A stretch of DNA of 64,000 nucleotides from Patescibacteria group bacterium (GCA_025999275.1 AP024680.1:556522-620521); one strand, 5' to 3'; positions 3,844 to 63,859 are shown, counted from the stretch's first letter. A program made the numbers and translations. Notes: generated by a model not told the origin, from the sequence alone.

Positions 3844-5175
3844 ATGTCTTTCTCTTTAAGATATTCTCTAAAGCTAATACAAGCGTTTTTGTTAAGATTT
3901 AAGTCCCTCATTTTAATAGGTTTCTTGATGGGTGTTCTTATATTCTTCTTACTAAAGTTTGTAATTTTACCTTTCATAACGTTAGGTAAAACAGAAAGAA
4001 TTGGTATTGTAGGAAAATATAGAATTGAAACTTTGCCTAACGACATTCTTTCACTTATAAGTTACGGGTTAAGTAGAAATAATTCAGACGGTTCATCCGA
4101 GCCAATGTTGGCCAAATCTTGGGAAACTCCCGATAAGGGAAAAACTTGGATATTTTATTTAAACGAAAATCTTTTTTGGCAAGATGGAACAAAAATTAAA
4201 AGCAGTGATATCTCATATAACTTTTCTGATGTCGAAATAGAAAAACCAGATGAAAAAACTATTATCTTTAAGTTAAAAAACCCTTTTTCTCCTTTCCCAA
4301 CAGTTGTCTCAAAGCCAATTTTTAAAAAGGGATTGCTTGGAGCAGGGGATTGGAAAGTAAAGAAGATCTCTATTTCAGGTGGTTATGTAGAAAAACTTAT
4401 ATTAACTGACAAAAATAAAAATCAAAAAATTTTTAGATTTTATCCCACAGAAGATAGGTTAAAGTTGGCATTAAAAATGGGAGAAGTCGATATAATAGAG
4501 AACCTTCTTGATCCAACACCGTTTGATAAATGGTCGAGTCTAAAAATAAAGGAAAATATTAACAAGAAACAAATAGTTACTATTTTCTTCAACAGCAACG
4601 ACAAATTTCTTTCCGAAAAAGTTATTAGACAAGCCCTTTACTATGCTATTGATAAAAATAAACTAAGCAGTAATAGTGCATATTCACCAATTTATCCTGA
4701 ATCGTGGGCTTATAATCCTTTAATAAAACATTATGATTTTGATCTTGATAAAGCTAAAAAGATGATTAACTCTTTACCTGCAGAAGCAAAGAAAGACTTA
4801 AGTATAAACCTTACTACCACTCCAGCACTTTTAGATTCTGCTGAAAAAATTGTCAAGATGTGGAAAGAGTTGGGTATCAACTCTAGCGTTCAAATCTCAT
4901 CAATAATACCAGACAATTATCAAGCGCTACTAGTTATATTTGAACCGCCTGTTGATCCTGACCAATATCCAATTTGGCATTCCACCCAGACAAATATAAA
5001 CTACTCTCAATACAAAAACCCTCGTATTGATTCTCTTCTCGAGGAAGGAAGAAGTAAACTTGATCTAGAAGATAGAAAAAAGATTTATTTTGATTTTCAA
5101 AGATTCTTGCTTGAGGAAGCTCCAGCAGCCTTTCTTTATCATCCGACTTTTTACACTATCTCTAGGAAAAAATAA
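3844..5175 (+). CDS. extracellular solute-binding protein, family 5 (Opp/Dpp-like). No cognate permease genes are adjacent.
   Basis: N-terminal TM/signal anchor. The region ENINKKQIVTIFFNSNDKFLSEKVIRQALYYAIDKNKL is typical of SBP_bac_5. Confidence 0.45.
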   Translation: MSFSLRYSLKLIQAFLLRFKSLILIGFLMGVLIFFLLKFVILPFITLGKTERIGIVGKYRIETLPNDILSLISYGLSRNNSDGSSEPMLAKSWETPDKGKTWIFYLNENLFWQDGTKIKSSDISYNFSDVEIEKPDEKTIIFKLKNPFSPFPTVVSKPIFKKGLLGAGDWKVKKISISGGYVEKLILTDKNKNQKIFRFYPTEDRLKLALKMGEVDIIENLLDPTPFDKWSSLKIKENINKKQIVTIFFNSNDKFLSEKVIRQALYYAIDKNKLSSNSAYSPIYPESWAYNPLIKHYDFDLDKAKKMINSLPAEAKKDLSINLTTTPALLDSAEKIVKMWKELGINSSVQISSIIPDNYQALLVIFEPPVDPDQYPIWHSTQTNINYSQYKNPRIDSLLEEGRSKLDLEDRKKIYFDFQRFLLEEAPAAFLYHPTFYTISRKK

Positions 5176-8480: not shown

Positions 8481-10196
8481 TTAAAATTTTGATCTTGAAA
8501 TAACTGCTTCTACAAAAGAAACAAAAATGGGGTGGGGTGATAGAGGACGACTTAAGTACTCAGGATGAAATTGGACCCCCACAAAAAATGGGTGATCCTT
8601 TATTTCTATCGCTTCAACCAGCTTCCCATCAGGAGAAACACCGGAAACTAAAAACCCAGCTTTTTCAAATCTTCGGCGATATTCAAGGTTAAATTCATAA
8701 CGATGTCTATGCCTTTCATAGATTAAAAGATTCTCCGACTTAATTGATTCATTTTTCCTCAAAGGATTAGGGAAAAACCATGGGCTAGATTCCAAACTAC
8801 CATATTTTCTGTAAGCGCTTTCAAGCTTTGTTTGAGGACTAACCAAACATGGCCAGGCTCCAAGCCTGATAGTTGCCCCATACTGCTTCTTTTCAAGATA
8901 TGCTTTCTGATTGGGCATTATATGAATAACAGGGTGGGGAGTTTGGGGATCAACCTCCTGACTATTGGCCCCTTTCAGACCAAGCACATTTCTTGCAAAC
9001 TCGATTGTTGCCATTTGCATGCCAAAGCAAAGACCAAGATAGGGAATTTTATTAACTCGTGCAAACTCAACTGCTAAAATTTTTCCTTCTACTCCTCTTG
9101 ACCCCCAACCCTGTGGAACAATAATCCCATCAACAGCGGATAAAATATCCTTGAGCTTATCTTTACTTATAGTCTCAAGATACGAAGAGTCAATCCAATT
9201 TATATCAACTTGGCAAGAAAGAAAGGCTGCTGCATGCTTTAGCGACTCAACAACACAAACATAAGAATCAGATAAAAGGTAATCACCTGTTTTTTGGTAT
9301 TTTCCCACAATTCCAATTTTAACCTTTTTCTTGACAAAAGAAGCTCTCTTGACCATATTTCTCCAGACTGAAAGAAGTCTTGATTCTCTCTTCTTTTTCC
9401 TAAGCTTCAATAATTTTATAATCTTTTTATCTAGCTTTTGTTTCTCAAGATAAAGCGGAATCTCATAGATATTTTTAACATCGGGGTTTGAGATTATGTT
9501 TTCCAAGGCAACACCAGAAGATAAGGCAATCTTTTCTTTCCTTTTGGTATCAACCTCATTTTCAGCTCGGCAGATTATAAAGTCAGGCTGAATTCCAAGC
9601 GAATGAAGCTGGGAAATAGATTGTTGAATAGGTTTTGACTTAAGTTCTCCTATTGAAGGGGGAGCGGGAAGATATCCTACATGTACAAAACAAACATCAC
9701 CCGGATATTTCAGCCTTAGCCTTCTTGCAGCCTCAAAAAATAAAAGACCTTCATATTCACCAACAGTTCCTCCAAGTTCAACAATAACAACATCAGCCTT
9801 GTGAGCCTTACCAGCTTCAAAGAAACGCTTGATTATTTCAGGTGGAATATGATGATAGGGCTGAACACATGCTCCATCATAGAAAAGAGCTCGTTCTTTG
9901 TCCAAAACTTCCTTATAAACCTGTCCACTTGTTAAGTAATTAGCTCTTAAGAGAGTTTCATTTAAAAATCTTTCATAGTGGCCCAGATCCTGATCTGTCT
10001 CAATTCCGTCATGAGTAACAAACACCTCACCATGTTCAATTGGATTCATTGTCCCAGCATCAATATTCAAATACATATCACACTTCATTATTGTTACTTT
10101 GTATCCTGAAGCTTTGAGAAGAAGTCCTATTGAGGCGGCTGTTACTCCTTTCCCCAATCCGCTTAAAACTCCACCTGAAACAATTATAAACCTCAT
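8481..10196 (-). CDS. pyrG: CTP synthase (glutamine-hydrolysing)
   Basis: N-terminal MRFIIVSGGVLSGLGKGVTAASIG synthase domain and C-terminal class-I glutamine amidotransferase (GLCFGMQ, HPEY). Length 571 aa. Confidence 0.95.
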   Translation of the reverse strand: MRFIIVSGGVLSGLGKGVTAASIGLLLKASGYKVTIMKCDMYLNIDAGTMNPIEHGEVFVTHDGIETDQDLGHYERFLNETLLRANYLTSGQVYKEVLDKERALFYDGACVQPYHHIPPEIIKRFFEAGKAHKADVVIVELGGTVGEYEGLLFFEAARRLRLKYPGDVCFVHVGYLPAPPSIGELKSKPIQQSISQLHSLGIQPDFIICRAENEVDTKRKEKIALSSGVALENIISNPDVKNIYEIPLYLEKQKLDKKIIKLLKLRKKKRESRLLSVWRNMVKRASFVKKKVKIGIVGKYQKTGDYLLSDSYVCVVESLKHAAAFLSCQVDINWIDSSYLETISKDKLKDILSAVDGIIVPQGWGSRGVEGKILAVEFARVNKIPYLGLCFGMQMATIEFARNVLGLKGANSQEVDPQTPHPVIHIMPNQKAYLEKKQYGATIRLGAWPCLVSPQTKLESAYRKYGSLESSPWFFPNPLRKNESIKSENLLIYERHRHRYEFNLEYRRRFEKAGFLVSGVSPDGKLVEAIEIKDHPFFVGVQFHPEYLSRPLSPHPIFVSFVEAVISRSKF

Positions 10197-10305
10197 TAAC
10201 TACTTGCCTAAATTAAAACAGAGAAAAAAAATTGTCAATAAGAATTTTTATTGTGCTTCCAAAGGCGGTCAGACCCTACCCCTTGTTCTGACAAAATTTG
10301 CCTAG

Positions 10306-10377
10306 TGCGCCCGGAGGGAATTGAACCCCCATCCCTTGTTCCGAAGACAAGTGCTCTATCCATTGAGCTACGAGCGC
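10306..10377 (-). tRNA. tRNA-Arg (anticodon TCG)
   Basis: Reverse complement: acceptor GCGCTCG/CGGGCGC (one G-U pair), anticodon stem-loop CTTGT-CTTCGGA-ACAAG, T-loop TTCAATT. Confidence 0.7.
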
Positions 10378-10485
10378 AAATTTTTTACCAATCTGAAAAC
10401 CTATTAAAGCCAGAATAATCAAAACTATAAGCAGAAATCAAAGAACTTTAAACTACCAGCTTTTACCCTTATAATTATAGCTTAA

Positions 10486-11568
10486 ATGAGCGACATTAAC
10501 CAGCAAATAAGCCAAATTGAAAAAGAAATAAGAGAAACTCCATATCACAAGGGGACAGAACACTATATAGGGCTTTTAAGAGCAAGGATAGCAAGACTCA
10601 AAGATAAGCTCTTGGAAAAAGAAAGCAAAAAATCAGGTGGTGGGGGAGGGTACGCTGTCAAAAAACAAGGTGATGCAACAATTGTTTTGGTTGGCCCACC
10701 ATCAGTTGGAAAATCAACACTCATAAATACTTTAACAAATGCCAATTCTAAAATTGCTCCATATGCTTTTACAACAGTTTCTGTAATTCCTGGGATGATG
10801 GAATACAAGAATGCCAAAATACAAATTCTTGATGTTCCTGGGTTAATTGAAGGAGCAGAGGAAGGCAAAGGAAGAGGAAAGGAGGTAATCTCAGTTATTA
10901 GAGGATGTGATTTGCTTATTATCATTGCAGAACCAGGCAAAGAAGAAGCTTTCAGAAGAATAACTTTAGCCTTGGAGAGAAATGGCATAAGAATTAACAA
11001 ATTAAAACCCGACATAAAAATAGAGAAAAAAGTAGATGGCGGAATAAAGATTTTTTCAAACATAAAGCAAGAATTGGCAAAAGAAACTATAAAAGAAATA
11101 ATTCAGGAGATGGGAATTAAAAATGCCGAAATAAAGATTAATCAAAAAATCACAATCGAAGATCTTATTGACAGCCTTTCAAGAAATAGAGTTTATGTAC
11201 CAGCTATATTTGCAATCAATAAATCAGATCTTCTGCTAGAAGAAAAACAAGGTGATGGAACTTTAGAAAATCCTGTTTTGATAAGCGCTCAAGAAAAAAG
11301 AGGACTTGATGTTTTGGTTGAAACTATATGGAGAAAGCTTGATCTTATTAACGTATATCTTGTAAAACCTGATGAGGAACCTTCTTTTAATAATCCAATA
11401 GTGGTCAAAAATAATTTAACATTGTACGACATTGCTAGGGAGATAGGAGAGGATTTTGCCAACTCAAAAACAAGCGCTATGATTTGGGGAAATGGAGCTA
11501 AATTTCCCGGTCAACAAGTCTCTCTTGAAACAAAAGCAAAAGAAGGAATGATGATAAGATTTATCTAA
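10486..11568 (+). CDS. OBG-superfamily GTPase of the DRG/Rbg1-like type, with C-terminal TGS domain
   Basis: N-terminal IEKEIRETPYHKGTEHYIGLLRARIARLKDKLL resembles DRG N-termini. Motifs present: G1 GPPSVGKST, G3 DVPG, NKSD. C-terminal TGS-like segment. Confidence 0.6.
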   Translation: MSDINQQISQIEKEIRETPYHKGTEHYIGLLRARIARLKDKLLEKESKKSGGGGGYAVKKQGDATIVLVGPPSVGKSTLINTLTNANSKIAPYAFTTVSVIPGMMEYKNAKIQILDVPGLIEGAEEGKGRGKEVISVIRGCDLLIIIAEPGKEEAFRRITLALERNGIRINKLKPDIKIEKKVDGGIKIFSNIKQELAKETIKEIIQEMGIKNAEIKINQKITIEDLIDSLSRNRVYVPAIFAINKSDLLLEEKQGDGTLENPVLISAQEKRGLDVLVETIWRKLDLINVYLVKPDEEPSFNNPIVVKNNLTLYDIAREIGEDFANSKTSAMIWGNGAKFPGQQVSLETKAKEGMMIRFI

Positions 11569-11575
11569 CTTCTTG

Positions 11576-11648
11576 TGAGCCTGGAAGGACTCGAACCTTC
11601 AACCGTTACCTTAAGAGGGTACTGCTCTGCCAATTGAGCTACAGGCCC
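11576..11648 (-). tRNA. tRNA-Lys (anticodon CTT)
   Basis: Reverse complement: acceptor GGGCCTG/CAGGCTC, anticodon loop CTCTTAA, T-arm GAAGG-TTCGAGT-CCTTC. Confidence 0.7.
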
Positions 11649-11661
11649 AAATTTTTCAAAG

Positions 11662-11734
11662 TGTCCCTGGAGAGAGTCGAACTCTCAACCTTTCCCTTAG
11701 AAGGGGACTGCTCTATCCATTGAGCTACAGGGAC
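11662..11734 (-). tRNA. tRNA-Arg (anticodon TCT)
   Basis: Reverse complement: acceptor GTCCCTG/CAGGGAC, anticodon loop CTTCTAA, T-arm GAGAG-TTCGACT-CTCTC. Confidence 0.7.
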
Positions 11735-11845
11735 AAATTTTTATAATTATAGCAATTTTACAATTTAATTTCAGCCTAATGCAAAATAAAATAAAATATT
11801 GACTTTTTGAAAAAATAATTCAATATAAAAACAAATTTTAATAAA

Positions 11846-12880
11846 GTGAAAAATAATAAGACTAATGGTTACCAACTTCCAAAAACTGCCGCAATTCTTT
11901 ATAGCGAAGTAAAAAGGAAGTATTTTCCCACCAGAGAGCAATATTTGACTGAAAAAGATGCCAAGAAAGATGCGCAACTAGTAGCAAAATATCTCAAAAA
12001 ATTAGGTTTGAAAGTTTATCTTTATCCTGGAAGCGACTATGTCTTTGAGATTTTAAGAAAAAAAAGACCTGATGTAGTTCTAAACATGGTTGACTCCGTC
12101 AAGGGGATTGAAAATCTGTCTGCCTCTATTCCCGGAGCGCTTGAGCTTTTAGACCTGCCTTATACAGGGGCTGCAATCTTGGGTAAATCTCTTGACACAA
12201 ATAAATTCTTGGTTAAGAAGCTTCTCCAACAAGCAGGAGTTCCTGTACCAAATTACCAGCTCTTGGATTCTGCCAATTACTACCTTGATCCAACATTAAG
12301 GTTTCCTTTAATTTCCAAACTTAACGAAATTCATGGCGGAGTAGAAATAAATCAAGATAGCGTATCTGAAAATCCGAAACATCTAAACCAAAGAGTAAAA
12401 TACCTAATTTCAACCTACAAACAACCAGTACTAGTTGAGGAATTTATAGTAGGAAGGGAAATTACGGCAATCTTACTTGAAGGATTAAACAAAAAAGTTT
12501 ACTTAGCAGAAAAAATATTTAAAAAGAGAGATCAAAAATACGTATTTTCCACTTTTGAAGATCAGTGGGTCAAGTCAAATAGGGAAAGTTTTGAATATAA
12601 AAAATATCACGATCCGCTTCTTCGAGAATATGTCAAAAAGGCTTTTGATGTTGTCCAGATGTATGATTACGGAAAATTTGACATTAGAATGGATCAATCG
12701 GGAAGATATTTTTTTATTGATGCAAATTGCAATCCCGCTTTTGGTCCAAAAGAAGCTGATGTAGCTTTATCTTCAATTCTTGATCTTTACGACATCTCTT
12801 TTCTCGAGATACTAAAAAGGCTTCTTTTAAACACAGTTAGAGATTTCCAGGGAAAAGAAAGATTGCCAGTTCCATTTTAA
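11846..12880 (+). CDS. ATP-grasp enzyme, D-alanine--D-alanine ligase-like
   Basis: N-terminal pre-ATP-grasp region, central GVPVPNY.., C-terminal ATP-grasp fold (EEFIVGREITAILLEG, FDIRMDQSGRYFFIDANCNPAFG). Confidence 0.5.
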   Translation: MKNNKTNGYQLPKTAAILYSEVKRKYFPTREQYLTEKDAKKDAQLVAKYLKKLGLKVYLYPGSDYVFEILRKKRPDVVLNMVDSVKGIENLSASIPGALELLDLPYTGAAILGKSLDTNKFLVKKLLQQAGVPVPNYQLLDSANYYLDPTLRFPLISKLNEIHGGVEINQDSVSENPKHLNQRVKYLISTYKQPVLVEEFIVGREITAILLEGLNKKVYLAEKIFKKRDQKYVFSTFEDQWVKSNRESFEYKKYHDPLLREYVKKAFDVVQMYDYGKFDIRMDQSGRYFFIDANCNPAFGPKEADVALSSILDLYDISFLEILKRLLLNTVRDFQGKERLPVPF

Positions 12881-19986: not shown

Positions 19987-20095
19987 AAAATATAGAACTC
20001 CTGATTTTTTTAAGGGAAAAACCTTTAGCCCCAAATCTTCTTTTGCCAAGTTCAATCCTTCAACCTTCAAAATTCAACATAAAGGGTAGTTGAAA

Positions 20096-20194
20096 GTAGC
20101 AAGTAGCACGTAGTAAGTAGTAAGGGAAAGGAATATAGATTTAGGATTTAGGATTTAGGATTTAGGATTTAAGAATTATGAATAATGAATTAAG
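20096..20194. repeat. intergenic modular repeat, locus A: GTAGCAAGTAGCACGTAGTAAGTAGTAAGGG module, (GATTTAG)x5 heptad array at 20138..20172, then GAATTATGAATAATGAATTAAG module
   Basis: The same modules recur, in either orientation, at 32724..32850, 36369..36555, 53711..53985, 59761..60095 and 63822..63859. Confidence 0.7.
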
Positions 20195-20325
20195 AAAGAC
20201 GGGTAAAAGTGCCTGTTTCAACAACGGGCCCATTATTAACACCCACTTGTTTGCAAAATATTAAACCTGCATTAATATCTATCTTCATCTATCTATTTAT
20301 CCTTTTTTAAGATATAATAGCTCCT

Positions 20326-27729: not shown

Positions 27730-29679
27730 ATGTTAGTTCCAATTTCCTGGCTCAAAGAATACGTAGAAATAAAAATGCCGCTTCAAGATTTGATGTGGCG
27801 CTTAACAGAGATTGGCTTAACTTGCGAAAGGACAGAAAAAATAAATGGAGAAGACGTCCTAGATATAGAAGTTACAGCCAATAGACCAGACTGGATGAGT
27901 ATTTTGGGTGTAGCTCAAGAGGTAGCGGCAATACAAAATACAAAAGTCAAAGAACCCGCTCTAAAAAAGATAAAAATACCCAAAGACAGCTGGCCAATAA
28001 AGCTCGAAAACAATTTTCAAGCAATAAGACGCTGGACAGGAATTATAATCTCAGATATTGAAATTAAACCTTCACCAACGTGGCTTCAAAAGAGATTAAT
28101 CTCAGTTAACTTAAGACCTATAAACAACGTTGTTGATATCACCAATTTTGTAATGTTTGAAATGGGCATCCCCATGCATGCCTTTGATTACGATGAGATT
28201 AAAGGGCATCTAATGAAAGTTGAGCTTGCCAAAGGGGGAGAGGATTTTACTAGCGTCGATGGAATTTCCTATAAACTTCCCAAAAATGCAATAATTATAA
28301 AGGATAACGAAAGAATTATTGATTTAGCAGGAATAAAAGGTGGTTTAAATTCGGGGATAAAACAAACCACAAAAAACATATTTCTCCATTCGACCATAAA
28401 CAATCCAGTCCTGATTAGGAGAGCTTCTATAGCCTTGGGTTTAAGAAGCGATGCATCTGCAATCTATGAAAGGGGACCAGATATAGGAGGAACTACAAAA
28501 GCCATAAACAGAGTGGTAGACCTAATACTTGAAACAGCAGGGGGAAAAGTCTCATCAAAAATTATTGATCTAAAAGATAAAGATTATAAACCATATAACC
28601 TTAAATTAAGACTTGATCGCCTAAGTAATGTACTAGGTATTAATATCAACAAAGAAAACGTGATTAAAATTCTTGACAGTCTCAATCTTAAACCCAAATT
28701 AAAAAATAAAGAAGTAATTTGCCTTATACCAACAAAGAGAAGTGATCTTAAGATTGAAGAAGATTTGATTGAAGAGGTTGCAAGAATCTACGGATATAAC
28801 AAATTTCCACTAACACTACCTCAAGGAGAGGTTAGAAAAGAAAAAATAGCTTATTTTCAAGACGATTCTATTCAAAAAAAATTACGCGAGATAATGATAT
28901 CCTCAGGATATTCAGAAACAATGAATTACTCACTGGTATCAGAAAAAACTATTAAAAATAGCCTTGGAAAGACCGAAAATCATATTAAAATAACAAACCC
29001 AGTAAGTGAGGAGTACCAATATCTTCGCACATCACTTCTACCAAGTTTAATTATGGCAACAAAGATCAACCAAGAAACAAAAATAAAATTATTTGAGATT
29101 GACAAAGTCTTTCCTGAAGAAAATTATAAAATATCAGCAGTTGCAAATGGAGTTGAATTTAGAGAATTCAAGGGTGTAATTGATCTAATACTAGAAAGGC
29201 TCCCGATTTCAGATTATGAAATAATATTTGAAACCAAAGACAATATTTGGCATCCAACAAAAAGCGCAACCATTAAGATAAATGATAAAGAAATTGGCTA
29301 CTTTGGTGAAATCAATCCTCAAGTAAAAGAAAATTTTGGTATAAAAGATATGCTTTGGGCATTTGAGCTTGATATAGAAACTTTACATAAAAATATAAAA
29401 CAAAAGATATATAGACCTATAAGTAACTATCCCCCGCAAATTGAGGATCTAACTTTTACGTTTCCCGCCAAAACAAGGATAAGAGAAGTCATAAATTCAA
29501 TTAAAAAAACCAGTCAATTAATCAAAAAAGTGGAGTTGATAGATATATTTGAAAATGCCTTTACATTCAGAATAATTTACCAGAGTTTTCAAAAAACCCT
29601 AGATAATAAAACTGTAAAGAGAATCAGAGAAAAAATAATAAGAAATTTGAACAAAAATTACGCGGGAAAAATAAAATAA
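27730..29679 (+). CDS. pheT: phenylalanine--tRNA ligase beta subunit, short form (649 aa)
   Basis: N-terminal MLVPISWLKEYVEI, B3/4 and B5-like regions, C-terminal anticodon-binding-like domain. 1-nt gap after pheS. Confidence 0.85.
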   Translation: MLVPISWLKEYVEIKMPLQDLMWRLTEIGLTCERTEKINGEDVLDIEVTANRPDWMSILGVAQEVAAIQNTKVKEPALKKIKIPKDSWPIKLENNFQAIRRWTGIIISDIEIKPSPTWLQKRLISVNLRPINNVVDITNFVMFEMGIPMHAFDYDEIKGHLMKVELAKGGEDFTSVDGISYKLPKNAIIIKDNERIIDLAGIKGGLNSGIKQTTKNIFLHSTINNPVLIRRASIALGLRSDASAIYERGPDIGGTTKAINRVVDLILETAGGKVSSKIIDLKDKDYKPYNLKLRLDRLSNVLGININKENVIKILDSLNLKPKLKNKEVICLIPTKRSDLKIEEDLIEEVARIYGYNKFPLTLPQGEVRKEKIAYFQDDSIQKKLREIMISSGYSETMNYSLVSEKTIKNSLGKTENHIKITNPVSEEYQYLRTSLLPSLIMATKINQETKIKLFEIDKVFPEENYKISAVANGVEFREFKGVIDLILERLPISDYEIIFETKDNIWHPTKSATIKINDKEIGYFGEINPQVKENFGIKDMLWAFELDIETLHKNIKQKIYRPISNYPPQIEDLTFTFPAKTRIREVINSIKKTSQLIKKVELIDIFENAFTFRIIYQSFQKTLDNKTVKRIREKIIRNLNKNYAGKIK

Positions 29680-32723: not shown

Positions 32724-32850
32724 AGTAGTAGCAAGTAGCAAGGATAAAGAAATTAAGAATTATTAGTTAAGAATTATGAATAATGAGATATGGAGTATGG
32801 GAAGATAATTCAAAATTCAAAATTCAGAATTCAAATTTAAAAATTAAAAG
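32724..32850. repeat. intergenic modular repeat, locus B: AGTAGTAGCAAGTAGCAAGG, TTAAGAATTATGAATAATGAG, (AATTCAAAA)n block
   Basis: Same modules and order as locus A. Its 5' part overlaps the ORF-track N-terminus of the PBP gene. Confidence 0.65.
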
Positions 32851-34237: not shown

Positions 34238-36244
34238 ATGGATTTAAACGATCCTGTTACAAAACTCCCTCTTGTGGGGCATCATTATTCTTCACTACTT
34301 GAAAAAGCTAATATTTCAACCGTTTACGATCTTCTTTTTTATATTCCTTATCGCTATCTTGACTTCAGCAAAGAAACAGAAATAGCCAAAGCAAAAATAG
34401 GCGATATCGTTACTATCTGTGGCAAAGTAGTTGAGATTAAAAATACATACACAAAAAGAGGACTGACAATCCAAACCGCCAAAGTTATTGATAAAACTGG
34501 AGCAATCAATATTATCTGGTTCAACCAACCTTACTTAGTTAATAATATTAAAAAAAACGAGATATATTCTTTCGCGGGAAAGATAACATTATTTAAAAAC
34601 AAAAAAACTATAGTCTCACCGGAATATGAGAAAAAAGAAAAAAGTGGAATCCACACAGGAAGACTAGTACCCCTTTATAGCAGCATCAAAGGAATAACTT
34701 CCAAATGGTTAAGATCAAGGATTAACCAGGCGCTTGAAATATATAAAGATAAAATAGAAGAAAAATTGCCAACTTCTACTCTTAGAAAGCTAGGGTATCC
34801 AAAAATAAATGACGCATTTTGGTATATACACCATCCTCAAAATGAAGAGGAAATTAAAAAGGGAAGGGAAAGGTTGGCTTTTGAAGAATTCTTAAAACTT
34901 CAGATTACAAGCCTAATAAAGAAAATAAACTGGCAAAAAAACAACACCGCTCCCATATTAAAAAACAATCAAGAAACAATCAAGTCTTTCCTAAAACTCA
35001 TTCCTTTCGAATTAACCAGAAGCCAAGAAAGAAGTGTTAAAGAAATAGCAACTGATCTAAACAATAAAATCCCAATGAATCGGCTTTTAGAAGGGGATGT
35101 TGGAAGTGGAAAAACTATTGTTGCGGCATTTGCTTGTTTTTTAGCAGTCAAAAACAAGAAAAAATCAGTCCTAATGGCACCAACTGAGATTTTGGCGAAA
35201 CAGCACTACAACACTTTCAAAAAAATATTTGAAAAAGAAAAAATTGGAATAGGATTGGCAACAGCCTCAGAAAAAAAGAATCTTGAAAACTCAGACATAA
35301 TTATTGGAACCCACGCTTTAATCTATAAAAGTGTCAATTTTGATAAAATTGGCCTTATTGTAATTGACGAACAACACAAATTTGGAGTTAAACAAAGAGC
35401 TTCTTTGGTTGAAAAGGTAAAAAAGGGAGAATATCAACCCCACATCTTGACTATGACAGCAACCCCAATTCCTAGAACTATAGCTCTTACTGCCTATGGA
35501 AATCTCGACCTATCTTTGCTTGAAGAAATGCCAAAAGGTAAAAGAAATGTTGTAACCTGGATTGTTCCAGAAGAAAAAAGAATCCCAGCCTACCTTTGGA
35601 TAAAAGAAAAAATAGAAAAGGAAAGAGAACAGGTTTTTGTTGTTTGTCCATTAATTGAAGAGTCGGAAAAAGAAAGTATGAAGCAGATTAAAGCAGCAGA
35701 ATCTGAATATATAAAACTGAAAGAAATATTTAAGAACCAAAAAATAGGCCTTCTTCATGGAAAATTAAAAACTAAAGAAAAGGATGAAATAATTCAAAAA
35801 TACAAAAACGGAGAGATTAGTATATTAGTATCAACACCCGTTGTGGAAGTAGGAATTGATGTCCCTAATGCAAACATAATGATAATCGAGGCAGCAGATA
35901 GATTTGGATTGGCACAACTTCATCAACTAAGAGGAAGGGTGGGAAGAGGGGAAAAGAAGGGTTATTGTCTACTTTTTAGTGAAAGCCAGTCTAAAAAGGC
36001 CTACAAAAGGCTAGAGGCACTAAGAAAAGAGTCTTCGGGATTCAAATTAGCAGAGATTGACTTATCACTAAGGGGACCTGGTGAGGTTTGGGGAACAAAA
36101 CAACATGGCTTTCCAGAACTTAAAGTAGCTAAATGGTCAGACACGGAAATAATCAAAAAGGCAAGAGAGACTGCTGAAGAAATATTATCTAACAAAAATA
36201 AATATAAAAAGATAATATCAGAGTGGGAAAGCAAAATCGTTTAG
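34238..36244 (+). CDS. recG: ATP-dependent DNA helicase RecG
   Basis: Wedge/OB N-domain, helicase motif I GDVGSGKT, motif II DEQHKFG, RecG C-terminal TRG-like region. Confidence 0.9.
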   Translation: MDLNDPVTKLPLVGHHYSSLLEKANISTVYDLLFYIPYRYLDFSKETEIAKAKIGDIVTICGKVVEIKNTYTKRGLTIQTAKVIDKTGAINIIWFNQPYLVNNIKKNEIYSFAGKITLFKNKKTIVSPEYEKKEKSGIHTGRLVPLYSSIKGITSKWLRSRINQALEIYKDKIEEKLPTSTLRKLGYPKINDAFWYIHHPQNEEEIKKGRERLAFEEFLKLQITSLIKKINWQKNNTAPILKNNQETIKSFLKLIPFELTRSQERSVKEIATDLNNKIPMNRLLEGDVGSGKTIVAAFACFLAVKNKKKSVLMAPTEILAKQHYNTFKKIFEKEKIGIGLATASEKKNLENSDIIIGTHALIYKSVNFDKIGLIVIDEQHKFGVKQRASLVEKVKKGEYQPHILTMTATPIPRTIALTAYGNLDLSLLEEMPKGKRNVVTWIVPEEKRIPAYLWIKEKIEKEREQVFVVCPLIEESEKESMKQIKAAESEYIKLKEIFKNQKIGLLHGKLKTKEKDEIIQKYKNGEISILVSTPVVEVGIDVPNANIMIIEAADRFGLAQLHQLRGRVGRGEKKGYCLLFSESQSKKAYKRLEALRKESSGFKLAEIDLSLRGPGEVWGTKQHGFPELKVAKWSDTEIIKKARETAEEILSNKNKYKKIISEWESKIV

Positions 36245-36368
36245 AAACCACAAATTCAATTAAAAATTAAAGTGAAAAATCCAAAGTTAACTCAAACAAT
36301 TAAGTTGCTAGATGCCCTCCAATAGAGCAACCAGCTTGTCCCCAGTAGATAGTATAGAAATTTTAAAC

Positions 36369-36555
36369 TCTAAATCTTCCCTTACTACTTACTACTTACT
36401 CCTGTTTTCAATCTTCCCATAATTCATGCCCCATTATCCATAATTCATAAACCATAAATCTTAAATCTTGATCCCTTTCTCACTCGCTACTTTCTGCCTG
36501 CTATTTATTTGCCACAGTCTTTAATTTTTAACTTTGAATTTTGAACTTTGAACTC
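36369..36555. repeat. intergenic modular repeat, locus C (inverted orientation): CCCTTACTACTTACTACTTACTCC, CATAATTCAT modules, CTAAATC units, (TTTTGAACTTTGAA)n
   Basis: 36379..36402 is the exact reverse complement of 20104..20127. The other modules are reverse complements of the locus A/B modules. Confidence 0.7.
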
Positions 36556-36612
36556 TTATCCTAAAAAACAATATTCTATTGCCTCTAACTACCACAAGCC
36601 AAAAGTCAATCC

Positions 36613-36682
36613 TTAACTGTTAATCGCCAATTGTTAATCGTTAATTGTTAACCGTTAATTGTTAATTGTTAGATGTTAATTG
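36613..36682. repeat. tandem heptad array (TTAATTG)x10, with variants TTAATCG, TTAACCG, TTAGATG, CCAATTG, overlapping the -35 of the rpmF promoter
   Basis: Ten contiguous 7-nt units counted directly. The last unit supplies TTGTCA of the downstream promoter. Confidence 0.75.
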
Positions 36683-36708
36683 TCATCTTCCTGTTGCATT
36701 AATATAAT
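36680..36708 (+). promoter_or_regulatory. candidate sigma70 promoter TTGTCA-N17-TATAAT for rpmF-nusB-acp-like-rnc
   Basis: Hexamers at 36680..36685 and 36703..36708, 24 nt upstream of the rpmF ATG. Confidence 0.5.
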
Positions 36709-36731
36709 ATTTAAGAGTAAAATATAAGCCT

Positions 36732-36893
36732 ATGACACCGTTACCAAAGAGAAAGCACACAAGAAGTAGAAGTGGAAAAAGGCGAAACAGCCAGTCTAAT
36801 CGATTTCTTTTGCCAAACCTTGTTGTTTGCCCTAACTGCAAAAAATTAAAACTGCCACACAAGCTTTGTGGAAATTGCCAAATGTATAGTTAA
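36732..36893 (+). CDS. rpmF: 50S ribosomal protein L32 (53 aa, below the ORF-track cutoff)
   Basis: [53 protein letters not shown] matches the bL32 pattern (PKRK.S..R...RR, CPNCG..KLPH..C..CG.Y). Confidence 0.8.
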
Positions 36894-36895
36894 GG

Positions 36896-37258
36896 ATGAA
36901 ATCTCCAAAAGATCCAAGGCATCAAAAAAGAAGAGAAATTGTAAAACTTATATTTGCTGAAGAATTTGCCCACCAACAAAATATTAACAAAATTGTTAAA
37001 GAGATTCTTGACAAAAAAGAAGAAATTGATAAATTGATTAGCGAGGGAGCACCTCTATGGCCAATCGAAAAGCTCAATAAAATAGATTTGGCTATTTTAA
37101 GATTGGCTGTATGGGAGTTATTAAAAAAAGACGCCCCGCCAAAAGTAATAATAGACGAGGCCATTGAACTTGCTAAGGAGTTTGGAAGCGAAAATTCTCC
37201 CGCTTTTGTAAATGGTGTTCTTGGTTTCATATATCAAAAGTTAGAAAATAAAAATTAA
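36896..37258 (+). CDS. nusB: transcription antitermination factor NusB
   Basis: RREIVKLIF.., [49 protein letters not shown] matches NusB conserved blocks. Confidence 0.85.
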
Positions 37259-37260
37259 CT

Positions 37261-37518
37261 ATGGAAAAGGATGACAAAAAATTTAAAAAATACTTAGAAA
37301 TAACTAGAAAGGTTCTTTCCCAAATATTGGGAACAGACTCTGTTGATATCCAACTTGAAGATTCGTTCACTGAAGATCTTCACATGGGGCCTACCGAAAT
37401 TGCCGATTTCATTCAACTAATGAACGACAATGGTTTTAGCTTAGATGATCTTGATCTTGAGGAGATAGATACTGTAGAAGAATTTGTCGATTATCTTGTT
37501 AACAATGAAGAAGTTTGA
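37261..37518 (+). CDS. acyl carrier protein-like protein lacking the conserved phosphopantetheine-attachment serine
   Basis: 85 aa, acidic. FTEDLHMGPTEIADFIQLMNDNGF aligns with the ACP [23 protein letters not shown] block, with Pro in place of the DSL Ser. Sits in the conserved acpP-rnc position. Confidence 0.45.
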   Translation: MEKDDKKFKKYLEITRKVLSQILGTDSVDIQLEDSFTEDLHMGPTEIADFIQLMNDNGFSLDDLDLEEIDTVEEFVDYLVNNEEV

Positions 37519-38179
37519 AGATTTTAAATTAATAAAAGATAATTTCAAAAATCCTAAAATCATAGAGGAGGCTTTAACACACCGTTCTTGGGTAAATGAA
37601 CACCCTGGTATAAGAGACAATAATGAAAGATTAGAATTTCTAGGAGACGCCATACTTGAATTTGTAGTCTCAAAAGAGCTGTTTCTAAAGTTTCCATCTA
37701 AAAAGGAAGGTTTTCTAACCACACTAAGAGCCAACCTTGTTAACACTTCAAGTCTAGCTCAAACTGCAAATAGTTTAGGTTTAGGTAAAGAATTATTTCT
37801 GTCCAAAGGAGAAGAAGAAACAGGGGGAAGAAAAAACCCTTCTCTTTTGGCCAATACATTAGAGGCCATTATAGGAGCATTATTTATTGATCAAGGTCTC
37901 TCAAAAGCCGAAGAATTTATACAAAAAAATATACTCAACAAAACCAAAGAAATGATAAAACAACCACTAAAAGACCCCAAAAGCAGGCTTCAGGAAAAAA
38001 TCCAGGCACAAGGATTGCCAGCACCAAAATACACTGTAATTAAAGAATCAGGTCCCGACCATCAAAAAACATTTGTAGTTAAAGCAACAATTAACGGTAA
38101 AGATCTAGCCCAAGGAAAAGGGAGAAGTAAATCTGAAGCTGAACAAAACGCAGCTAAAGAAGCGCTAAAGGGGTTGTAA
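37505..38179 (+). CDS. rnc: ribonuclease III. Start taken at ATG 37505 (MKKFEDFKL), overlapping the upstream gene by 14 nt.
   Basis: RNase III signature ALTHRSW..NERLEFLGDAILEFVVS. C-terminal dsRBD (KDPKSRLQEKIQAQGLPAPKYTV...GKGRSKSEAEQNAAKEAL). Confidence 0.9.
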   Translation: MKKFEDFKLIKDNFKNPKIIEEALTHRSWVNEHPGIRDNNERLEFLGDAILEFVVSKELFLKFPSKKEGFLTTLRANLVNTSSLAQTANSLGLGKELFLSKGEEETGGRKNPSLLANTLEAIIGALFIDQGLSKAEEFIQKNILNKTKEMIKQPLKDPKSRLQEKIQAQGLPAPKYTVIKESGPDHQKTFVVKATINGKDLAQGKGRSKSEAEQNAAKEALKGL

Positions 38180-38211
38180 TAATAAACCAAATAGATTAAA
38201 ATTAAAGCCTT

Positions 38212-38433
38212 ATGATTAAAATCAGACTTTCAAGAGTAGGAAAAAACAACAACCCATTTTATAGAATTGTTGCTATAGAAGAAACCAAAAAGAGAGAGGG
38301 AAAAGCTAATAATGTAATAGGGTTCTGGAACCCAAAAGAAAATAAAATTGAAATTAATAAAGAAAAACTCGATAAGTGGTTAAAAATGGGAGCTGTTTTA
38401 AATCAATCAGTTAAAAAATTGCTCGAAATTTAA
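38212..38433 (+). CDS. rpsP: 30S ribosomal protein S16
   Basis: MIKIRLSRVGKNNNPFYRIVAIEETKKREGKANNVIGFWNP. Confidence 0.85.
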   Translation: MIKIRLSRVGKNNNPFYRIVAIEETKKREGKANNVIGFWNPKENKIEINKEKLDKWLKMGAVLNQSVKKLLEI

Positions 38434-38438
38434 TTATT

Positions 38439-38669
38439 ATGGAAGAATTGCTTAAATTCATAATTTCTTCTATCCTACCAGGTAAGGAAATTCCTATAAC
38501 CAAAGAGGAAACCGAAGATGGCTTAATTACTTTTCTAGTTAAACCCAAAGAAGAAGACGCTGGAATTCTAATAGGAAAAGATGGTAAAGTTATTAAAGCA
38601 ATCAGTCAAATCTTAAAAATAAAAGCTACTTTAAACAAGAAAAAAGTAATCATAAAAGTCGTTTCATAA
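38439..38669 (+). CDS. KH-domain RNA-binding protein (KhpA/YlqC-like)
   Basis: 76 aa, GILIGKDGKVIKAISQILK KH motif. Conserved position after rpsP. Confidence 0.65.
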   Translation: MEELLKFIISSILPGKEIPITKEETEDGLITFLVKPKEEDAGILIGKDGKVIKAISQILKIKATLNKKKVIIKVVS

Positions 38670-53680: not shown

Positions 53681-53710
53681 TAGTATTTAATTTAAACTAT
53701 TTTCAACAAA

Positions 53711-53985
53711 CTAGCAAGGGGAAAGAATCAAGATTTATGAATTATGGATTAAGGGATAGAAATTATGGGGAAATAATCCAAAAGTTAAAATTCAAAAGTT
53801 TACTTAGATAATTAAATAATTTTAAATTTTGAATTGTATTTTTGAATTTTGCCTTTTGACTTTTAAGTTAATTTTTTTAGATATTAGAGTTTGAGATTTG
53901 AAAAGTTTATATAACTTTTAATTTTTAACTTTGAATTTTGAATTATTTTCCCATGCCCCATCCTCCATTATTCATTATTCATTTC
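53711..53985. repeat. intergenic modular repeat, locus D. A ~275 bp imperfect palindrome built from the family modules: left arm CTAGCAAGGGGAAAG, GAATTATGG, AATTCAAAAGTT; right arm AACTTTGAATTTTGAATT, CATTATTCATTATTCAT.
   Basis: The right-arm modules are reverse complements of the left-arm modules. Confidence 0.65.
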
Positions 53986-54004
53986 CTATTGCTATAATCC
54001 AAGT

Positions 54005-59744: not shown

Positions 59745-59760
59745 AACTAGAAGGGGAGTG

Positions 59761-60095
59761 GTAACGAATTATGGGAACATAATTCAAAAGTTAAAAGTCA
59801 AAAGCCCAAACTACAAGCTAAAAGTCAAAAGTTTTTCTCCTAAATAATTTTAAATTTTGAATTGTTGGCCCAAGGCTAACCAGCCTAGGGCTGGTACTTT
59901 TTAATTTTGATTTTTGAATTTTGAATTATTTTCTCATACCCCTTAATTCATTATTCATAATTCTTAACTATTACTATCGTATCCGTGTACTAGTCTACGG
60001 AACCGGTTATCACTTCTCTTAAATCTTAAATCCATATTCCTCTCCCTTACTACTTTCTACATCCTACTTGCTACTATTTCCCCCTTTTACCCCTT
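59761..60095. repeat. intergenic modular repeat, locus E. A ~330 bp imperfect palindrome, interrupted at 59866..59898 by a GC-rich palindromic insert TTGGCCCAAGGCTAACCAGCCTAGGGCTGGTAC.
   Basis: Left arm GAATTATGG / AATTCAAAAGTTAAAAGTCAAAAG. Right arm TTTTGAATTTTGAATT / CATTATTCATAATTC / TAAATCTTAAATC / CTTACTAC..CTTGCTACT. 59943..59968 is the reverse complement of 20167..20192. Confidence 0.7.
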
Positions 60096-63821: not shown

Positions 63822-63859
63822 AACAACGAACAACAATCAACAACCAACAATCAAAAGCC
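63822..63859. repeat. degenerate heptad array (ACAACGA ACAACAA TCAACAA CCAACAA TCAAAAG) in the AT-rich intergenic region upstream of xerC (locus F)
   Basis: Five contiguous CAACAA-like 7-nt units. The region also carries AATTGAAAAATTG and TCAAAAACTTCAAATT, which resemble the family modules. Confidence 0.5.

Follow-up and report, generated by a model that had tools for sequence, protein, structure and literature searches.

Does the tandem array of TTAATTG heptads that runs into a promoter-like motif ahead of the rpmF-nusB-rnc operon serve to regulate this operon, or is it a repeat that happens to end there? The array lies in a 64,000-nt stretch of DNA from a Patescibacteria group bacterium (GCA_025999275.1, AP024680.1:556522-620521), which is called the window in the following. 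Comparison of the array with the other spacers of the window and with related genomes suggests that it is probably a heptanucleotide long simple-sequence repeat (LSSR), namely the promoter-proximal module of a 7-nt mosaic present in long spacers of one Woesebacteria sub-clade. A dedicated switch or special regulatory device of the ribosomal protein operon it probably is not.

The TTAATTG array and its variation between strains

The array and its decayed end were located at the following positions.

36613..36682, plus strand: TTAATTG heptad array, ten units, four of them perfect (in-register reading, Tandem Repeats Finder, shuffle test)
36585..36612, plus strand: four decayed in-register units, CTAACTA CCACAAG CCAAAAG TCAATCC (register; period-28 row of Tandem Repeats Finder)

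Read in register from 36613, the units are TTAACTG TTAATCG CCAATTG TTAATCG TTAATTG TTAACCG TTAATTG TTAATTG TTAGATG TTAATTG. The longest perfect run comprises two units. An A at position 3 and a G at position 7 are common to all units; the variants are mostly T-to-C exchanges at positions 5 and 6. Tandem Repeats Finder reported a period of 7 with 10.1 copies and 73% matches, which bears out the ten-unit tandem array with point variants of the preliminary description, and in addition a higher-order period-14 unit with 81% matches. For the recG-rpmF spacer the best lag-7 local score was 19; among 1000 dinucleotide shuffles the highest score was 12 and the average 5.0. In the whole window the best lag-7 score was 34 versus 8-16 for lags 4-12. 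The tandem repetition of a 7-nt unit, which is characteristic of the LSSR class, thus exceeds what chance would produce. The decayed units directly upstream are its older, promoter-distal end. A motif scan and a self-comparison revealed no second TTAATTG array elsewhere in the window.

Folding of the array or the leader into a hairpin or another structured RNA was considered and rejected (minimum free energy -20.8 kcal/mol, z-score -0.71). A known RNA element was rejected as well, since Rfam searches returned only tRNAs for the whole window at gathering thresholds and no match for the recG-rpmF spacer at E<=1.

The number of units differs between close relatives. A near-identical strain (contig L097), obtained from a different sequencing run (SRR23829991) and an independent assembly, is 99.8% identical to the window in the downstream genes (4702 nt, 10 mismatches). 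Its array counts 11 units, one more than that of the window: TTTACTA TTAATCG CCAATTG TTAATGG TTAATGG TTAATGG TTAATTG TTAATTG TTAATTG TTAGATG CTAATTG. The two arrays are distinguished by one interior 7-nt indel and by homogenization at the level of units, while the flanking units are retained. TTAATGG occurs three times in L097 and is absent from the array of the window; the longest perfect run in L097 has three units. With gaps counted the arrays are 82% identical, whereas the strains do not differ in the 49 nt that separate array and ATG. A comparison of repeat copy number across strains had been proposed in the preliminary description, and length polymorphism was indeed found.

The same was observed for two sister genomes, L082 and L086, which are 98.8-99.0% identical in coding DNA versus 70% in the recG-rpmF spacer. 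Their arrays differ in 7-nt steps (13 versus 15 units and 5 versus 4 units), and whole modules have been exchanged. Overall, spacer identity amounted to 53-88% where coding identity was 95-99.8%, and the mosaics change at a rate tens of times that of the genes beside them. Judged from these alignments, the pattern appears to be one of slow concerted evolution of a degenerate minisatellite and not one of rapid switching of a perfect tract.

Heptad mosaics in the window and in related genomes

The 487-nt spacer between recG and rpmF is a chain of period-7 arrays with the TTAATTG array as its last member. The rest of this mosaic and the mosaics of the other spacers are as follows.

36345..36584, plus strand: rest of the recG-rpmF mosaic, with three CTTACTA (36381-36400), CCATAAT/TCATAAA/TAAATCT (36431-36469) and four to five TTTGAAC (36520-36554)
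20051..20196, unstranded: mosaic upstream of tig, with TTCAACC, AAGTAGC, GATTTAG (five units) and GAATTAT types
32724..32849, unstranded: mosaic between the divergent genes of penicillin-binding protein 1 (PBP1) and tyrS, with AGTAGCA, AATTAAG/GAATTAT and AATTCAA (six units)
53750..53990, unstranded: mosaic between the divergent pilB and holB-like genes, modules mirrored
59760..60090, unstranded: mosaic between the divergent NAGPA-family and gyrA genes, with mirrored modules around the near-palindrome CCGTGTACTAGTCTACGG (59983-60000)
63822..63859, minus strand: array upstream of a minus-strand xerC/D-like integrase gene, TTGATTG TTGGTTG TTGATTG TTGTTCG

Of the roughly 20 period-7 arrays that Tandem Repeats Finder detected in the window, only two lie outside these six long spacers, each of which holds 2-5 unit types; the two exceptions, at 27930 and 34629, are short, with 2.3 copies each. 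Two further heptad arrays had been pointed out in the preliminary description. Both exist (GATTTAG with 4.9 perfect copies at 20138-20171 and a CAACAAT-type array at 63822-63854), but the number of arrays was clearly undercounted. Under a strict criterion nine period-7 arrays with a total of 347 nt remained, all of them non-coding, and none was found at lags 5, 6, 8, 9 or 10. The autocorrelation of the pooled non-coding DNA peaked at 7, 14, 21 and 28 nt, whereas coding DNA showed period 3 only. Lag-7 identity in the six mosaic spacers was 0.43-0.56 compared to approximately 0.3 at other lags, and it was not raised in the tRNA-bearing spacers of the window. Approximately 60 arrays were counted in five sequences, and nearly all of them are non-coding.

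The mosaics make up about one third of the non-coding DNA of the window. Their neighbors are housekeeping genes, encoding trigger factor, PBP1 and TyrRS, the products of the rpmF operon, PilB and a DNA polymerase III delta-prime-like protein, a NAGPA-family protein and GyrA, and a XerC/D-like recombinase. Parts of the recG-rpmF mosaic return in four of the others: in the self-comparison, 36377-36552 matched 32727-32806, 20059-20168, 53708-53769, 53917-53942 and 59900-59925 in either orientation. The plus strand of the recG-rpmF mosaic at 36345-36584 is poor in G (7%). A fixed orientation of the mosaics, or a rut-like C-rich and G-poor strand, was nevertheless only a tendency (five consistent cases, two opposite, one neutral) and was not used further. 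A fixed distance between array end and promoter was rejected, for the last array ends between 9 and about 130 nt before the -10 box or the ATG. The smallest value is that of the CATTATT array in the pilB/holB-like spacer, where 9 nt separate the array from the TATAAT box of the holB-like gene. The ideas of a replication origin with a DnaA-box cluster and of DNA-uptake sequences were dropped, given several mosaics per 64 kb, their differing units and the lack of any pointer in that direction.

Homologues of RNase III place the window in Candidatus Woesebacteria, a member of the candidate phyla radiation (CPR/Patescibacteria). Syntenic loci of relatives were gathered through exact-protein look-ups. 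The look-up of L32 gave no record, and that of NusB gave a contig identical to the window, which is uninformative on polymorphism. A scan of species-representative genomes with RecG found only relatives of at most 53% identity, and these were used as a negative control of approximately 700 kb. Almost no lag-7 arrays were detected in this control. The best RecG matches (CAZGHY010000047.1, CAZBXB010000005.1 and CAZKWZ010000017.1) are metagenome-assembled genomes titled 'uncultured Gammaproteobacteria'; these titles look unreliable, as the RNase III of the window points to Woesebacteria.

The syntenic relatives comprise L082 (CP058602.1, 818,817 bp), L086 and L094 with an RNase III identity to the window of approximately 80%, L089 with 77%, L091 (CP055308.1) with 73% and L092 (CP011214.1) with 67%. 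Strict period-7 arrays number 5-7 per 20 kb in L082, L086 and L094, two in L089 and zero in L091 and L092. The recG-rpmF spacer reflects this distribution. In L082, L086 and L094 it contains ATTACAA, CTAAATT and ATAATAC types, then 13-15 units of CYGAYRK and finally four to five units of CTTTTAC beside the promoter. L089 carries yet other units, among them three TTAAWWG. In L091 recG and rpmF are no more than some 40 nt apart, and the spacer of L092 measures 107 nt and is free of arrays. The spacer between the PBP gene and tyrS behaves likewise. It is free of a mosaic and 80-100 nt long in L089, L091 and L092, whereas in the window and in L082, L086 and L094 it consists of a mosaic of 240-490 nt, and the short promoter cores at both of its edges are retained with or without the mosaic. 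In the relatives, the arrays are dispensable for the conserved core promoter.

Composite segments recur in inverted form in different spacers of one genome, and the PBP-tyrS spacer of L082 contains an inverted copy of a composite found in the recG-rpmF spacer of L086. Several short-read contigs (L083-L085, L087, L088, L090 and L097) end inside the recG-rpmF mosaic, which suggests that mosaic spacers break short-read assemblies of this clade. They are also potential markers for strain typing.

Two further elements accompany the heptads in L094. A perfect 18-bp palindrome, CCGTGTACTAGTACACGG, is found in the mosaics of two spacers (4953-4970 and 8895-8912), and the NAGPA-gyrA spacer of the window contains a copy with two mismatches (59983-60000). 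It could be a candidate protein site or a small mobile element. The second is a non-heptad element of 59-67 nt (8706-8772 and, inverted, 4986-5044; 97% identical) with a tRNA T-arm-like stretch, GGTTGGAATCC. Its copies lie in two spacers 3.7 kb apart, each flanked by TAAATCT-type heptads.

Promoters of the rpmF operon and the proposed origin of the array

Genes and promoter motifs around the array are listed below.

34238..36244, plus strand: recG, the upstream neighbor; the spacer begins at its stop codon
36680..36708, plus strand: promoter-like TTGTCA-N17-TATAAT of the preliminary description (11/12 consensus positions; window and L097 only)
36694..36723, plus strand: conserved candidate core promoter TTGCAT-N18-TAAAAT of the leaderless type, TAAAAT 8 nt before the ATG (comparison with relatives)
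36732..36893, plus strand: rpmF (ribosomal protein L32), first gene of the operon (open reading frame, Pfam)
36896..38669, plus strand: nusB, an 85-aa PP-binding (acyl-carrier-protein-like) gene, rnc, rpsP and a KH-domain gene (open reading frames, Pfam)

The assignment of the downstream genes as rpmF-nusB-rnc was confirmed by Pfam, which recognized L32p, NusB, S16 and KH domains as well as RNase III, and by the RNase III homologues. The 85-aa gene between nusB and rnc (37261-37518), which overlaps the start of rnc, gave a weak PP-binding Pfam match; it is retained at the same position in related loci.

The array does run into a TTGTCA-N17-TATAAT motif ahead of rpmF, as had been stated. The final TTG of the array together with TCA forms TTGTCA (36680-36685), which is followed by a 17-nt spacer, by TATAAT (36703-36708) and, after 23 nt, by the ATG at 36732. 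Hexamers and spacer fit a sigma-70-type promoter. When the last 80 nt ahead of rpmF were compared among the relatives, anchored at the ATG, this pair was, however, found only in the window and in L097 and was not conserved in other relatives. In contrast, TAAAAT is located 7-10 nt before the rpmF ATG in every lineage compared, including the array-free ones, and in four lineages TTGC(A/T)(T/C) lies 17-18 nt upstream of it. The copies in the window are TTGCAT (36694-36699) and TAAAAT (36718-36723), with 11 nt between the array end and this conserved -35. Consequently, the functional core of the rpmF promoter is most likely TTGCAT-N18-TAAAAT-N8-ATG of the leaderless type. The supposed fusion of the array to the -35 is probably incidental, since a different pair is conserved in the relatives whether or not they possess arrays.

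A -10-like box also occurs 6-10 nt before the start codon of other operon-first genes (10486, 20326, 22270, 32981, 54005 and 54672), and the short spacing between -10 and ATG is kept at rpmF, tyrS and the PBP gene in related Woesebacteria. This suggests that leaderless transcripts may be common in this genome and lineage. The boxes are TATAAT- or TAAAAT-like, and these genes, as well as the one at 36732, have no obvious Shine-Dalgarno sequence.

How might the array have arrived at this place? We propose that arrays grow, shrink and become homogenized by replication slippage or unequal recombination in steps of 7 and 14 nt, and that recombination between similar arrays would spread segments of the mosaic from spacer to spacer. 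Such DNA would be tolerated only outside coding sequence and core promoters. Arrays would expand until a sequence under purifying selection is met, and one of them may abut the rpmF promoter because its expansion stops there. UP elements are AT-rich regions just upstream of the -35 box of a promoter. The array would fill a UP-element-like zone of this kind, where it might at most modulate transcription and would not be required for it. Any effect, for example as AT-rich upstream DNA, is likely modest, weak or absent.

Several observations weigh against this explanation. Slippage is read from the patterns of variation. If the mosaics were pure junk, one would hardly expect them to fill about one third of the non-coding DNA of the window in a streamlined genome of ~0.8 Mb. 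The small heptad vocabulary that recurs across species, the invariant unit positions 3 and 7 and the tendency of the G-poor strand to read toward the adjacent gene could each reflect a function. Finally, TTGTCA-N17-TATAAT is a very strong motif with 11 of 12 consensus positions and is retained in both strains, so that the array may really supply a -35.

Known heptad repeats and alternative explanations

The closest known kind of repeat is the heptanucleotide LSSR class, also named short tandemly repeated repetitive (STRR) sequences. STRR sequences were reportedly described in cyanobacteria by Mazel in 1990. Heptanucleotide LSSR/STRR arrays occur in cyanobacteria (Calothrix, Nostoc and Microcystis) and in Xanthomonas; some lineages have an excess of heptameric simple-sequence repeats in their intergenic DNA, for which an origin by polymerase slippage was proposed (Mrazek et al. 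2007, as cited in PMC4679880 and PMC4692102). Both their length and their sequence vary extensively between close relatives (PMC4692102; PMC4679880). The arrays described here share with this class the concatenation of several unit types in many arrays, the restriction to intergenic, non-coding DNA, the lineage-specific occurrence, the variability between close relatives and the lack of an established function. The TTTTGAA arrays of Nostoc, which sit near promoters and start codons (Nostoc recO/recF preprint), even match the TTTTGAA/TTTGAAC arrays of the window. Unlike the known hosts, however, the organism studied here is a CPR bacterium (Woesebacteria) with a genome of ~0.8 Mb; its units are AT-rich and mostly degenerate, and its mosaics lie between core promoters of the leaderless type.

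Direct repeats of TAACTGA have been described in marine Beggiatoaceae, cyanobacteria and Bacteroidetes (MacGregor 2015, PMC4679880). Like the arrays of the window they are often mixed with other heptamers and show indels between strains in 7-nt increments. TAACTGT and TAATTGT of the window agree with TAACTGA at six and five of the seven positions, respectively. In 'Maribeggiatoa' two to six perfect copies lie within a few nt of the start codon, presumably in the 5' untranslated region (UTR), which suggested translational control, whereas the ten copies in the window are degenerate and precede the promoter of a gene that is probably leaderless. Identity with the published repeat was rejected, as the consensus found here, TAATTGT, matches it at only five of seven positions.

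By architecture, the nearest functional precedents for the array are the ctxAB and hmw heptads. The TTTTGAT heptads of Vibrio cholerae ctxAB number 3-7 depending on the strain and influence regulator binding and activation (PMC4453562 and its reference 21). ToxR, ToxT and H-NS act on these heptads. They resemble the array in being AT-rich direct repeats of strain-variable number immediately upstream of a promoter. In contrast to this single virulence locus with known regulators, the genome studied here has many unit types and an array at a housekeeping operon that is replaced or absent in relatives. The ATCTTTC repeats of hmw1/hmw2 in Haemophilus influenzae are perfect tracts of 11-63 units whose number grades expression; they lie inside the 5' UTR of contingency adhesin genes and form a hairpin processed by RNase III (PMC12721329). 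The 7-nt unit and its variable number are shared with the window; perfect tract, 5' UTR hairpin and adhesin genes do not apply to it.

In the literature library that was searched, heptad mosaics had not been reported for Woesebacteria or other members of the CPR. The array is a real, fast-evolving member of a known bacterial repeat class in a new and somewhat unexpected host lineage. Heptanucleotide mosaics of cyanobacteria, Xanthomonas, Beggiatoaceae and some Bacteroidetes are now joined by those of a streamlined CPR genome of ~0.8 Mb. The process that generates the repeats is hence not confined to large, repeat-rich genomes. Sister genomes with and without mosaics, which have the same syntenic spacers and core promoters, offer a compact comparative system for the function of heptads.

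The main rival to the interpretation as spacer filler is an iteron-type operator. A protein would bind cooperatively with one dimer or monomer per heptad and would set the transcription of rpmF-nusB-rnc-rpsP, and the number of units would tune the response. Such an arrangement is workable. The omega repressor of plasmid pSM19035, a ribbon-helix-helix protein, has operators of 7-10 contiguous WATCACW heptads at promoters, with one protein dimer per 7 bp. These operators resemble the array in about ten contiguous heptads that overlap or abut the -35. An operator would agree with an array that stops at a hexamer resembling a -35, 11 nt short of the conserved one, with the concentration of the variation at unit positions 5-6 next to an invariant A3 and G7, with the three TTAAWWG units of L089, and with the related TTGATTG-type array at 63822-63859, which lies ~25 nt upstream of another promoter-like motif (TTGACA-N17-TAAACT, minus strand). 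Heptads that affect regulator binding also have precedents (PMC4453562; Nostoc recO/recF preprint). In the plasmid system, however, all regulated promoters share one heptad with a known cognate protein, whereas no such protein is at hand for the array, with candidates sought only in the Pfam annotation of neighboring genes, and the TTAATTG unit is not recurrent in the 64 kb of the window, where only the loosely related TTGATTG array comes close. Orthologous promoters carry other heptads (L082, L086, L094 and L089) or none (L091 and L092) beside the same core promoter. At least seven unit families would demand as many binding proteins in a genome of ~0.8 Mb. The variable distance between array end and -10 box or ATG and the reshuffled array interior of strains that are 99.8% identical also speak against an operator. 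We therefore consider it unlikely, though it deserves attention before any other alternative.

The arrays could instead be the footprint of a mobile element. A small non-autonomous element, similar to a miniature inverted-repeat transposable element or a small dispersed repeat, would target DNA upstream of promoters and deliver or seed the arrays, which would then not have grown in situ. Composite segments shared by several spacers in either orientation would fit such an element, as would the twofold occurrence of the 59-67-nt element and of the 18-bp palindrome in L094 with the near-copy of the latter in the window, the mirrored order of modules at divergent spacers and the breaking of contigs at mosaics. 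The TTAATTG array itself is, on the other hand, single-copy in the window; neither terminal inverted repeats nor target-site duplications nor a transposase were identified; the order of modules differs between copies, and the 7-nt indel and the homogenized units that separate the two strains are changes of the slippage type. As a replacement for the LSSR interpretation a mobile element is distinctly unlikely; largely, it would complement growth of the arrays in place.

A more far-reaching idea is that the shared heptads (CTTACTA, TAAATCT, ATAATTC, TTTGAAC, CTTTTAC, CYGAYRK and TTAATTG) form a functional upstream code. One or a few DNA-binding or nucleoid proteins in phase with the heptads might read it, or an activity devoted to the generation of heptads might write it. 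We regard this as quite improbable. If it were true, the leaderless promoters of housekeeping genes would be organized and tuned in this way in a lineage that possesses very few transcription factors, and array turnover would lead to heritable fine-tuning of core operons such as rpmF-nusB-rnc.

A phase-variable promoter, or one tunable by copy number, had been suggested in the preliminary description. The adjoining promoter-like motif and the polymorphic unit number stand, but a dedicated switch does not agree with the degenerate units, the location upstream of the -35, the housekeeping operon, the similar arrays in five other spacers and the unrelated or missing heptads of orthologous spacers. 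In its strict form, a contingency locus in which slipped-strand mispairing at high frequency switches or grades the operon as at hmw, this proposal could draw on the 10 versus 11 units of near-identical strains, the 7-nt-step differences of the sister species and the hmw precedent (PMC12721329), yet it is highly improbable, considering that the longest perfect run is two units in the window and three in L097 compared to perfect hmw tracts of 11-63 units, that unit changes would leave the -35/-10 spacing, the reading frame and the UTR untouched because the array lies upstream of both candidate -35 hexamers, that L32, NusB, the acyl-carrier-like protein, RNase III, S16 and the KH protein are essential housekeeping and not surface, virulence or restriction proteins, and that other housekeeping genes flank arrays of the same kind.

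TTAATTG-like arrays are also found far beyond this lineage. TTAAYYG arrays were detected in at least 120 diverse metagenome contigs (GC 22 to 67%) and in 58 viral contigs, many of them within mosaics of other heptads and some of them perfect with 8-15 units. On a 15-kb contig filed as viral (L230, GC 33%), TTAATTG is repeated perfectly 4-15 times at each of four sites (8780-12340), two of which are followed by the same flank, TTAATGTTCCAAAAAACGATATTGTGGGTGGTGG; this contig represents another genome with TTAATTG as a dispersed repeat. On one metagenome contig (L175, ~300-345) a TTAACTG/TTAATTG run lies between two direct repeats, GTCGCACTCCGCAAGGAGTGCGTGGATTGAAAC, that resemble those of clustered regularly interspaced short palindromic repeats (CRISPR), and looks like a CRISPR spacer made of heptads. 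In unrelated metagenome contigs, TTAAYTG arrays directly abut 16S rRNA genes at the 3' end (L130, 3310-3344) or at the 5' end (L134, 2865-2899). Apart from the heptads, two adjacent tRNA genes on the minus strand of the window (11576-11734) constitute an 86-nt tandem duplication with 80% identity.

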